DNA of 64,000 nucleotides from Candidatus Omnitrophota bacterium (GTDB taxonomy: Bacteria > Omnitrophota > Gorgyraeia > JAHJTE01), in NCBI GenBank assembly GCA_018830005.1, contig JAHJTE010000001.1:709624-773623 (forward strand). The letters are read 5' to 3'. Positions 32,148 through 33,861 of this stretch are shown here, in pieces. The notes beneath the pieces were generated by a model. It was not told the DNA's origin. It worked only from the letters and a program-made list of their open reading frames with translations, and searched no databases. The first letter of the stretch is position 1; each line of letters begins with the position of its first letter. Both the position numbers and the translations under genes were made by a program.

Positions 32148-32272
32148 GAAAAAGGCAAACCATGTCTAAATAGAGGCATGGGACGCAAAGCTAAAGGGCC
32201 CTTTAAGGTTTGGGGCAGCCAGTTGCCAATAGAGAATGAACCTATTCTGTAACTGGTGAATAGGTTTTTTTA
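32148..32272 (+). ncRNA. c-di-GMP-I (GEMM) riboswitch-like leader with terminator (copy 2)
   Basis: GGCAAACCATG...CATGGGACGCAAAGCTAAAGGGCC core, then GCCAGTTGCC. Terminator GAACCTATTC...GAATAGG plus T7. Confidence 0.8.
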
Positions 32273-32358
32273 TGGTATAGGAAAGTATAAAACTTTCCTA
32301 ACCACTGAAAATCAGCTGAAAGTTATCGCGAAACGATTTTCTTGTGAGGTGAGCTAAG

Positions 32359-33861
32359 ATGTCTGCGAGAACTCAATTCTTGAGACTAAATGATAATAGG
32401 GGTATTGCGTTGATCACAACCTATCTTTTGGTAGCAGTGCTTTTTGTGCTGGGTGCGGCATTTTTTCTTCGTACAACCAGTGAGCGAATAATAACTGACG
32501 TAGATAGAGATAATCTAATTGCATTTAATGCTGGCGAGGCTGGACTTGCCCGCGCTATTGTGTATATGAGGAACAGGACGGGTGGTTCTGATACAAGTAA
32601 CAATGATCCCTTTGATCCTTTTTCTTCACCTGTTGAAAAGGGATTAAATCAGGCTGACGTCTTGAATAATATTGAACAGGTCTTTGAGAGTAGTGTTACC
32701 TTCCAACAGTTTTGCGCAGAGCCTGATTTAGATGATTGCGCTAGCACTGATACAGCAGGAGGAACATATCAGGCTATTATAGATCCTGATCAATCAAATT
32801 TCTCAGGTTCAGTTAAAAATAGGTTTATCATCACTGTTAGAGGAATCGTAGGAGGAATTTCACGCACTTTAATTGCTGCTGTTCAGATAGATAATTTTGC
32901 GCGTTTTGCTTATTTTTCTGATGATGAACATTATGGCCGCGGTCGGGATAGGGCTCCAGTATGGTTTATTACCGGAGACGAAATCTGGGGACCAACTCAT
33001 ACAAACGGGCATTTTCACATTTTAGGCAATCCTATCTTCCATGATGCGGTTGTTTCTGTTGATGATTTTATTACTTATTTTACCCCAGCTCCATCTGCAG
33101 GTAATGATCCGCAATTTTTAGGAGGTTTGACGTTAGGCATAGATCCTATTCCTATGCCACACCAGGCTATAGAATTGCATACAGCTTCAGTGCAAGGCGG
33201 TGAGGTGTTTAATGGTAATACTACTATTGTTTTGAACGCTGATGGTACAATGGATGTAACCAATGGCCAACTTTTGCAGACTGAGGGTTGCAGCCCTTGC
33301 AATAGATCATTGCCGGCTAATTACGCCCTTTATGTCTCAGGAGGCGACCTTACTCTTTCTGGCACTTTAGATGGTTCCTTGACTGTAGGTACAAATCGAG
33401 ATATAATTATTGCAGATGATATTCGCTATAACTGTGAGGATCCACTCATAGCATGTCCTGGGGATCCAAATGAGCTATGTGTTGATGCTGCGCTTCGTGA
33501 TGCATGTGATGATATGTTAGGTATTATTGCTGAAAAAGAGGTAATCGTGAGCGATTCTATAGCCCATAATCACATAAGGATTGACGGTTCGATTATGGCT
33601 ATGGATCAGTCTTTTACTGTAGAGAACTATAATACTGGCGACCCTCGGGGAATCTTGACAGTTTTTGGCGGCATAATCCAGGACCAACGCGGACCTGTGG
33701 GTACGGGTAGTGTTAATATGGTTAACGGTGAGGCAGAGATAACGCACGGTTATGCCAAAAATTATATATATGACTCGCGTTTTGCCACTAATCCACCAAT
33801 GTATTTTCCCAGGACAGGAGATTACCTTAACTTAGTCTGGCAGGAAGAATTGGGTTTATGA
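32359..33861 (+). CDS. PilX-N-domain minor pilin-like protein (500 aa) with a Cys-containing beta-helix-like C-terminal region
   Basis: N-terminus RGIALITTYLLVAVLFVLGAAFFLRTTSE (PilX_N pattern). Gly/Thr-rich repeats (VLNADGTMDVTNGQLL, YVSGGDLTLSGTLDGSLTV). Confidence 0.65.
   Translation: MSARTQFLRLNDNRGIALITTYLLVAVLFVLGAAFFLRTTSERIITDVDRDNLIAFNAGEAGLARAIVYMRNRTGGSDTSNNDPFDPFSSPVEKGLNQADVLNNIEQVFESSVTFQQFCAEPDLDDCASTDTAGGTYQAIIDPDQSNFSGSVKNRFIITVRGIVGGISRTLIAAVQIDNFARFAYFSDDEHYGRGRDRAPVWFITGDEIWGPTHTNGHFHILGNPIFHDAVVSVDDFITYFTPAPSAGNDPQFLGGLTLGIDPIPMPHQAIELHTASVQGGEVFNGNTTIVLNADGTMDVTNGQLLQTEGCSPCNRSLPANYALYVSGGDLTLSGTLDGSLTVGTNRDIIIADDIRYNCEDPLIACPGDPNELCVDAALRDACDDMLGIIAEKEVIVSDSIAHNHIRIDGSIMAMDQSFTVENYNTGDPRGILTVFGGIIQDQRGPVGTGSVNMVNGEAEITHGYAKNYIYDSRFATNPPMYFPRTGDYLNLVWQEELGL

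Follow-up and report, generated by a model that had tools for sequence, protein, structure and literature searches.

Whether one RNA leader can place the genes of a type IV pilus assembly machine under the control of cyclic di-GMP (c-di-GMP) is the question raised by a locus of a Candidatus Omnitrophota metagenome-assembled genome, analysed here in a window of 64,000 nt (the whole stretch of DNA considered). A first-pass annotation had recognised in this window two leaders with a GEMM riboswitch core, of which the first, copy 1, precedes a pilin gene, and the second, copy 2, lies before a gene for a 500-aa protein (32359-33861), followed by a hypothetical gene and by pilM, N, O, P and Q; it had proposed that not only the pilin subunit, but also the assembly and secretin genes, may be subject to attenuation by c-di-GMP. 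The copy 2 leader is the element under study. We consider it probable, on the basis of the models described below, that it is a c-di-GMP-I transcriptional OFF switch in the leader of an operon running from a ComZ-like tip pilin, the 500-aa protein, through pilMNOPQ. From sequence and folding, which underlie all our predictions of switch logic, promoter and downstream reach, we infer the direction of the switch in vivo and how far downstream its effect extends. Coordinates refer to the + strand, unless otherwise indicated.

For attachment or the uptake of DNA, these small-celled bacteria possess few surface structures, type IV pili being one of them, so that a switch of this kind would offer a concrete regulatory handle. 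With five riboswitches in 32 kb, this uncultivated Omnitrophota lineage would use RNA to connect its type IV pilus genes with c-di-GMP, and the predicted sign, repression, is opposite to that of the pilus riboswitches studied in Geobacter and Clostridioides difficile. No new mechanism and no new RNA class are revealed: riboswitches for cyclic dinucleotides before pilus genes are already known, as is GEMM-I control of pilMNOPQ in Geobacter. What differs here is the phylum, the predicted OFF sign, the site before a ComZ-like tip pilin gene, the twin relation with the leader of the pilin gene and the loss of a tetraloop. A text search of the literature returned no paper tying Omnitrophota, c-di-GMP and riboswitches in this sense.

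A c-di-GMP-I aptamer precedes the 500-aa gene

The gap before the 500-aa open reading frame (ORF) spans 32076-32358, that is 283 bp instead of the 284 bp given by the first-pass annotation. Within it, Rfam cmscan found a match to RF01051 (c-di-GMP-I) at 32144-32230, scoring 51.8 bits (E 3.1e-07; gathering score 35) over the full model (1-87), and the GEMM core GGCAAACC...GGGACGCAAAGCTAAAGGGCC...GCCAGTTGCC could be read directly in the sequence. For comparison, 80 loci with homologues of the 500-aa protein were fetched and searched for aptamers by using R1, a covariance model built from the aptamers of the window and of its relatives, which gave 87.5 bits for copy 2; a strict regular expression for the GEMM core was dropped, having matched only L002 and L060 in the 80 loci, to which R1 added L001 and others.

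The Rfam match, R1 and an alignment of eight related leaders support an aptamer at 32142-32232. In the Rfam alignment, P1 is formed by 32142-32148 with 32227-32232, P2 by 32155-32156 with 32185-32186 plus 32160-32167 with 32174-32181, and P3 by 32189-32200 with 32214-32224. The ligand contacts G20, A47 and C92 (numbering of Vc2 from Vibrio cholerae; PMC4744006) are kept as G32154, A32187 and C32226, and the interhelical C44-G83 pair as C32184/G32218. Vc2, the structural archetype of RF01051, has the same P1/P2/P3 junction, contacts and interhelical pair (PMC4744006, PMC11705072), but its GAAA tetraloop is docked in a receptor, whereas copy 2 has a hexaloop, a short P3 and no receptor.

When the alignment of the eight leaders was compared with 500 shuffles, aptamer and terminator together were 92.7% paired, with 10 pairs altered on both sides, and none of the shuffles equalled this result. 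Four of the five pairs of P2 covary; pairing is weakest in P1 (68.9%), in part owing to insertions in two of the sequences. Copy 2 is a genuine aptamer of the c-di-GMP-I family and its sequence predicts that it binds the ligand. Both the GEMM core and the terminator (see below) that the first-pass annotation had assigned to copy 2 are present, and its copy 1 is real as well (26348-26424, 66.8 bits).

As a separate observation, in three leaders (L001 6804-6931, L060 6657-6790 and L001 ~2780-2909) the 5' strand of P1 and GAAAA are split from GGCAAAC by two GC-rich hairpins, e.g., CCCGCC...GGCGGG and TCCGCC...GGCGGA, which is unusual for the junction J1/2 next to G20.

With regard to the ligand, two sister aptamers of the window score best with RF03167 (c-di-GMP-I-GGC), and GEMM-I relatives in Geobacter sense 3',3'-cyclic GMP-AMP (cGAMP; PMC9262584); both facts would favour an aptamer for another cyclic dinucleotide, such as cGAMP in the case of GEMM-Ib, or a c-di-GMP-I-GGC variant. 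Copy 2, however, scores best with RF01051, and its equivalent of G20, the position described as a selectivity factor between cyclic dinucleotides (PMC9262584), is a G (32154). Moreover, the RF03167 consensus GGGACGCGAA has a G at the A47 column, after ACGC ('GGC' would name positions 20, 47 and 92), whereas the window aptamers read ACGCAAAG or CCGCAAAG, with an A in five cases out of five, and the two best RF03167 scorers mismatch exactly there. Membership of RF03167 was rejected because of the A at the A47 column, and all five aptamers are taken as ordinary c-di-GMP-I in terms of their pocket; we regard a different ligand as extremely improbable. The window also encodes a CHASE2-GGDEF diguanylate cyclase (50500-52227, - strand) with a GGEEF and RxxD site, divergent from the third riboswitch.

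Predicted competition of terminator and antiterminator in the leader

Downstream of the aptamer, an intrinsic terminator was located at 32238-32271, with the stem formed by 32238-32247 and 32258-32267, the loop at 32248-32257 and a run of seven T at 32265-32271. Its 10-bp stem, folded alone, has a free energy of -12.2 kcal/mol (z -2.07); a simple terminator scan, which excluded loops of more than 8 nt, missed it because the loop is 10 nt long. The last aptamer position is 32232 and the first of the terminator is 32238, so that the two can coexist.

The minimum free energy (MFE) structure of the whole leader, however, is not aptamer plus terminator, but an antiterminator hairpin (32218-32257) composed of two parts: 32218-32226 (the 3' strand of P3 and C92) pairs with 32249-32257, the loop of the terminator, and 32228-32232 (the 3' strand of P1) pairs with 32242-32246, in its 5' arm. 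The antiterminator is already the MFE structure for transcripts ending at 32255-32260, in which the 3' arm of the terminator is not yet made. For the ensemble of 32124-32271, the unconstrained value is -45.6 kcal/mol, with a pair probability of 0.996 for the antiterminator, compared to -41.6 kcal/mol when the terminator is enforced and -35.7 kcal/mol when the consensus aptamer is enforced, in which case the terminator forms unaided. The gap of ~10 kcal/mol between the free fold and the aptamer fold is of the order that a tight ligand could supply. A helix of 32139-32147 with 32259-32267, also seen in the MFE structure, was discarded as a separate element, being a by-product of a motif common to P1, antiterminator and terminator. 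Across the eight leaders the antiterminator is 88.8% paired, against 26-43% in slid controls, and the complementarity for this alternative pairing is kept in six of them.

This arrangement bears on the sign of the switch. By precedent only, binding of c-di-GMP could be expected to block termination, as in Geobacter pilM and C. difficile pilA1, since the cyclic-dinucleotide riboswitches studied before pilus genes are ON switches (PMC9262584, PMC4744006). In copy 2, instead, there is no overlap between the aptamer and the terminator stem (32238-32267), which ligand binding therefore cannot sequester; the enforced aptamer fold yields the terminator; and the competing helix is built from the 3' strand of the aptamer. 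An ON logic was rejected on this architecture, and we hold it to be very unlikely. The OFF logic, though not proven, is well supported by the predicted architecture and by the conserved complementarity.

A similar design is that of Cd1, in the leader of the flgB flagellar operon of C. difficile, in which a class I aptamer is followed by a separate intrinsic terminator; the two can be present together, each in competition with an antiterminator that joins the aptamer 3' strand to the terminator 5' strand ([PA][TH] vs P[AT] layout), and Cd1 is a transcriptional OFF switch over a long operon for a surface organelle (PMC9262584), the function predicted for copy 2. On the other hand, Cd1 belongs to another phylum and targets the flagellum and not the type IV pilus, it has no stable P1, whereas a P1 of 6 bp is predicted for copy 2, and it needs the tetraloop contact, whereas copy 2 has no GNRA loop. 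For pilus assembly genes under a riboswitch there is a direct precedent in the pilM riboswitch of Geobacter metallireducens (GEMM-Ib). It has an aptamer of GEMM-I fold and acts transcriptionally in the leader of a polycistronic pilM operon, but it senses cGAMP, it is an ON switch and its aptamer and terminator are mutually exclusive (PMC9262584); copy 2 has a G at G20, an OFF layout, and ComZ-like and hypothetical genes before pilM. The pilA1 riboswitch of C. difficile shares the control of a type IV pilin by c-di-GMP (PMC4744006); it differs in its unrelated class II aptamer, in being an ON switch and in controlling the major pilin.

Transcription into and through the leader

The copy 2 leader probably has its own promoter, to judge from a putative site at 32087-32115 composed of TTGTAT (32087-32092), a 17-nt spacer and the extended -10 element TGtTATACT (32107-32115), which would place the start of transcription at ~32122. 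The site was not listed by the consensus scan because its -35 matches at only 3/6 positions. TATACT, in most cases with TGn before it, occurs at a similar distance upstream of four of the five window leaders, of the copies found before the pilin gene ('a') and before the ComZ-like gene ('b') in L001, L002 and L060, and in L036 and L056; there was no TATACT in the stretch read upstream of the leader at 57171. We found no convincing terminator after the upstream minor pilin gene, and read-through from the pilin operon may reach the copy 2 leader.

In the proposed mechanism, transcription would start at ~32122 from the extended -10 promoter, possibly supplemented by polymerases arriving from the pilin/minor-pilin genes upstream. 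With c-di-GMP bound, P1 and P3 would be locked and the strand 32218-32232 unavailable, so that the hairpin 32238-32267 with its U7 would form and RNA polymerase would halt at ~32270. At low c-di-GMP, 32218-32232 would pair with 32242-32257, the terminator would be blocked and transcription would run on into 32359-38729.

The spacer between terminator and start codon (32272-32358) contains a degenerate TGgTATAGG (32273-32281), a hairpin (32280-32298) and the Shine-Dalgarno sequence GAGGTGA (32346-32352). The consensus scan found no promoter-like site on the + strand of this spacer; TGgTATAGG resembles the -10 element of the leaders, but is without the final T. In L001 and L002 the spacer is absent, and the Shine-Dalgarno sequence and the ATG lie <=~20 nt past the T-run; because the ribosome-binding site is so close, there is no room for an independent promoter after their terminator. 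Just past the copy 2 terminator (window 32267-32281), 13 nt, TTTTTATGGTATA, are the same as in the promoter region of copy 1 (~26320-26338), and the hexamer of this stretch reads TATAGG in place of TATACT.

The 500-aa protein resembles ComZ

The first-pass annotation had described the 500-aa product as a PilX-N-domain protein. The 500-aa ORF and a pilin-type N-terminus (NDNRG followed directly by IALITTYLLVAVLFVLG, with a hydrophobic helix after a short leader and no Glu at +5) are confirmed, but the domain is not: PilX_N scored 23.5 bits, below the Pfam cut-off of 25.5 bits, and DUF4900 20.5 bits, also under its cut-off. An AlphaFold2 model calculated with 34 homologues (pLDDT 85.1) places residues 14-72 in a helix that leads into a beta-rich body, and the top Foldseek match in the PDB was ComZ of Thermus thermophilus (6qvi, E 7.7e-09, probability 1.00). 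This was the sole significant match, the next unrelated one having E 0.26. ComZ is a beta-solenoid pilin that binds DNA and for which a location at the pilus tip has been proposed (PMC6561018).

Since ComZ is the only significant structural match, 'ComZ-like tip pilin' fits better than 'PilX-like', and the modelled protein is better described as a minor pilin of this kind, with the pilin N-terminal helix and the large beta-solenoid seen in ComZ. The two proteins have a sequence identity of 12-13% and a global TM-score of 0.30 only, and while tip location and DNA binding have been argued for ComZ, the likeness of the 500-aa protein is one of predicted fold only. It has 69 homologues, nearly all in Omnitrophota, and matches with 100% identity an NCBI entry from a Candidatus Omnitrophota metagenome-assembled genome.

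The gene chain to pilQ and an intragenic promoter-like site

The ComZ-like gene is followed without gaps by the genes of the assembly machine. The start of a 169-aa hypothetical protein (33858-34367; no Pfam match) overlaps the ComZ-like stop by 4 nt, and homologues of this gene lie between the ComZ-like gene and pilM in L001 and L002. Then come pilM (34364-35320; PilM_2, 142.6 bits), pilN (35324-35893; assigned by position and by a weak PilN match of 18 bits), pilO (35890-36501; PilO, 37.3 bits), a PilP-sized ORF (36482-36874; position and a weak T2SSB match of 21 bits) and the secretin gene pilQ (36858-38729; Secretin 151.4, Secretin_N 42.6 and STN 39.8 bits). The junctions from the ComZ-like gene to pilQ range from overlaps of 4-20 nt to a 3-nt gap, and a strong terminator with a 14-bp stem (38763-38794), annotated as 38763-38804 together with the T-run that follows, ends the operon. 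The gap-free order pilM, N, O, P, Q of the window is the same in L001, L002 and L060.

The earlier statement that no promoter-like gaps interrupt this chain holds for the gaps themselves; inside the ComZ-like ORF, however, the scan found a near-consensus, sigma-70-like site, TTGACT-17-TATAAT, at 33379-33407, with 11/12 consensus positions. The attenuation proposed for the assembly genes has its leader, terminator, predicted OFF layout and unbroken chain to pilQ in place, whereas pilMNOPQ may or may not depend on the riboswitch, in view of this intragenic site. One possibility is that the riboswitch gates the ComZ-like tip pilin only, and that the hypothetical gene and pilMNOPQ are transcribed mostly from an internal promoter at 33379-33407, the assembly machine being largely constitutive. 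In fact, besides the 11/12 match in the window, a perfect TTGACA-17-TATAAT stands at the aligned codons in L001 (7946-7974) and L002 (7925-7953), and L060 has a 5+5 match, most other family members being weaker; codon usage, given the amino acids, predicts such a match in only 3-6% per genome. However, the site sits on the conserved protein motif LTVGTNRDIII, which is inherently near the consensus, and family members without pilM downstream also reach 5+5, so that the signal is in part an artefact of coding. Moreover, promoter-like matches in the region are no commoner than in shuffles (49 vs 44.0 +/- 7.4), and the test was post hoc, on three related genomes. We judge an internal promoter that uncouples the assembly genes to be somewhat unlikely, though a possibility of real weight.

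Points against operon-wide repression by copy 2

Several observations weigh against the proposal that copy 2 is a working OFF switch for the whole operon. The first is the intragenic site just discussed, which may uncouple pilMNOPQ from the riboswitch, and the second is that the riboswitches known from pilus genes, those of pilM in Geobacter and of pilA1 in C. difficile, turn expression on. The terminator stem has only three G-C pairs and its loop is 10 nt long; copy 1 and the leaders of L001 and L002 have terminators of ~-15 to -16 kcal/mol, against -12.2 kcal/mol in copy 2. Covariation in the antiterminator was not significant in the eight leaders (one covarying pair; 127/500 shuffles as good), and therefore we claim only conserved complementarity. 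Both L060 leaders are without the ACUGG element.

The remaining points concern the aptamer itself. On P2 of copy 2, the expected GNRA tetraloop is replaced by the hexaloop AAAUAG (32168-32173), as seen in the alignments and in the MFE fold, which has an 8-bp stem and a 6-nt loop; P3 has no 11-nt receptor (no CCUAAG/UAUGG); and the three orthologues all score higher with Rfam (L001 61.3, L002 66.2 and L060 60.6 bits). The P2 loop is GUAA or GCAA in copy 1 and in the orthologues from L001, L002 and L060, so that, among the orthologues, the tetraloop is missing in the window genome alone. Since a tetraloop mutant of Cd1 lost c-di-GMP binding (PMC9262584), copy 2 may respond less, or be inert.

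In the extreme case, copy 2 would be a decaying aptamer, deaf to c-di-GMP, whose default antiterminated fold gives constitutive read-through, as the lost tetraloop, the low score, the strongly favoured free-state fold and the failure of the Cd1 mutant could suggest. Yet no ligand-contact nucleotide has been lost, nor the C44/G83 pair or any of the three helices; the score exceeds the threshold by 17 bits, and the terminator with its T-run has persisted, which is unexpected if it is unused; in addition, the A-rich hexaloop could still dock. We thus consider decay unlikely. The loss of the tetraloop lowers the confidence in full function, not in homology, and the reading of copy 2 as an OFF switch is retained.

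It was also observed that the hexaloop and 32174-32175 repeat the 7-mer AAUAGAG of the P1 3' strand (32168-32175 vs 32228-32234). A templated insertion might account for the repeat, which might alternatively act as a second decoy for the CCUAUU strands.

Placement of the leader in related genomes

In the 80 loci searched, an aptamer directly before the ComZ-like gene occurs only in L001, L002 and L060, where the ComZ-like gene, with pilMNOPQ after it, is separated from the second minor-pilin gene by aptamer and terminator. The window and these three loci have in common the order pilC, aptamer 'a', pilin, TPR protein(s), minor pilins 1 and 2, aptamer 'b', ComZ-like gene, pilMNOPQ and RNase G. 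In most of the remaining loci the ComZ-like gene and the two minor pilins stand too close together to accommodate a leader; for this reason the 'b' leader looks, by parsimony, like a lineage-specific insertion. Aptamers are also found before the first minor pilin in L036, L048 and L056, and, in L090, between the pilin gene and the minor-pilin/ComZ-like/PilM block, so that the link of GEMM-I with these pilus genes recurs. This element of L090 (4440-4480, - strand), the second aptamer of its contig, has a terminator and is followed by a strong promoter-like TTGACA-16-TACAAT.

A metagenome scan for the pattern of aptamer 3' end plus terminator gave 18 loci (L081-L098). No further 'b'-type copy directly before the ComZ-like gene was present in these 18 loci; where the neighbours could be identified, the copies were of 'a' type, before pilin genes.

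A possible recurrent cassette before pilus genes

The window contains five aptamers of the c-di-GMP-I clan within 32 kb, all on the + strand (26348-26424, 32144-32230, 52431-52551, 57171-57290 and 58395-58484; Rfam), with pilin- or pseudopilin-type genes downstream of them at 26570, 32359, 52617, 57345 and 58607. The twin leader of copy 1 (26346-26467) precedes the pilin gene 26570-27007 and shares with copy 2 the terminator module and the type of antiterminator, formed here by CCAGUUACC with GGUGACUGG. The terminator modules, at 26430-26467 and 32238-32271, after the aptamers at 52554, 57293 and 58486, and in L001, L002, L060 and L081-L098, share CCTATT...AATAGG and a T-run, which end every leader of the group; upper stem and loop vary, the upper stem with compensatory changes. 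Common descent of a cassette of promoter, aptamer and terminator would be the simplest reading of the invariant lower stem.

Tentatively, we propose a wider scenario, in which a cassette made of extended -10 promoter, GEMM-I aptamer and CCUAUU/AAUAGG terminator would have been copied repeatedly, in one Omnitrophota lineage, before every class of type IV pilus genes, one insertion having split an ancestral minor-pilin/ComZ-like operon. According to it, c-di-GMP would shut off in parallel the major pilin, the tip pilin, possibly DNA-binding, and the assembly/secretin genes, with 'a' and 'b' leaders that are maybe differently tuned.

The MFE structure of the 'a' leaders (26346-26467; L002 853-973) is the terminator, and that of the 'b' leaders (32139-32271; L002 6840-6968) the antiterminator; this modelled difference may correspond to different c-di-GMP thresholds for pilin and assembly genes. 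The aptamers at 52431-52551 and 57171-57290 have an extra hairpin of ~30 nt within P2 and, unlike copies 1 and 2, a GAAA loop with the canonical CCUAAG/UAUGG receptor in P3.

Upstream of copy 2, the window encodes pilC (25002), the pilin (26570), two membrane and TPR proteins and the N_methyl minor pilins at 30903 and 31434. The two proteins between pilin and minor pilins (27087-30790) are paralogous, with multiple membrane passes and C-terminal TPR repeats; they are kept at this place in L001, L002 and L060, and Pfam matches their TPR part only. Downstream of riboswitches 3 and 5 lie an 860-aa protein (54335-56917) with many Cys-rich repeats similar to CCEGCYSSSNCTDSCPSTSS and no Pfam match, a 569-aa pilin-like protein (58607-60316) with a long Thr/Pro-rich linker, and a 164-aa pilin (60337-60831) that matches ComP_DUS with 28.6 bits.

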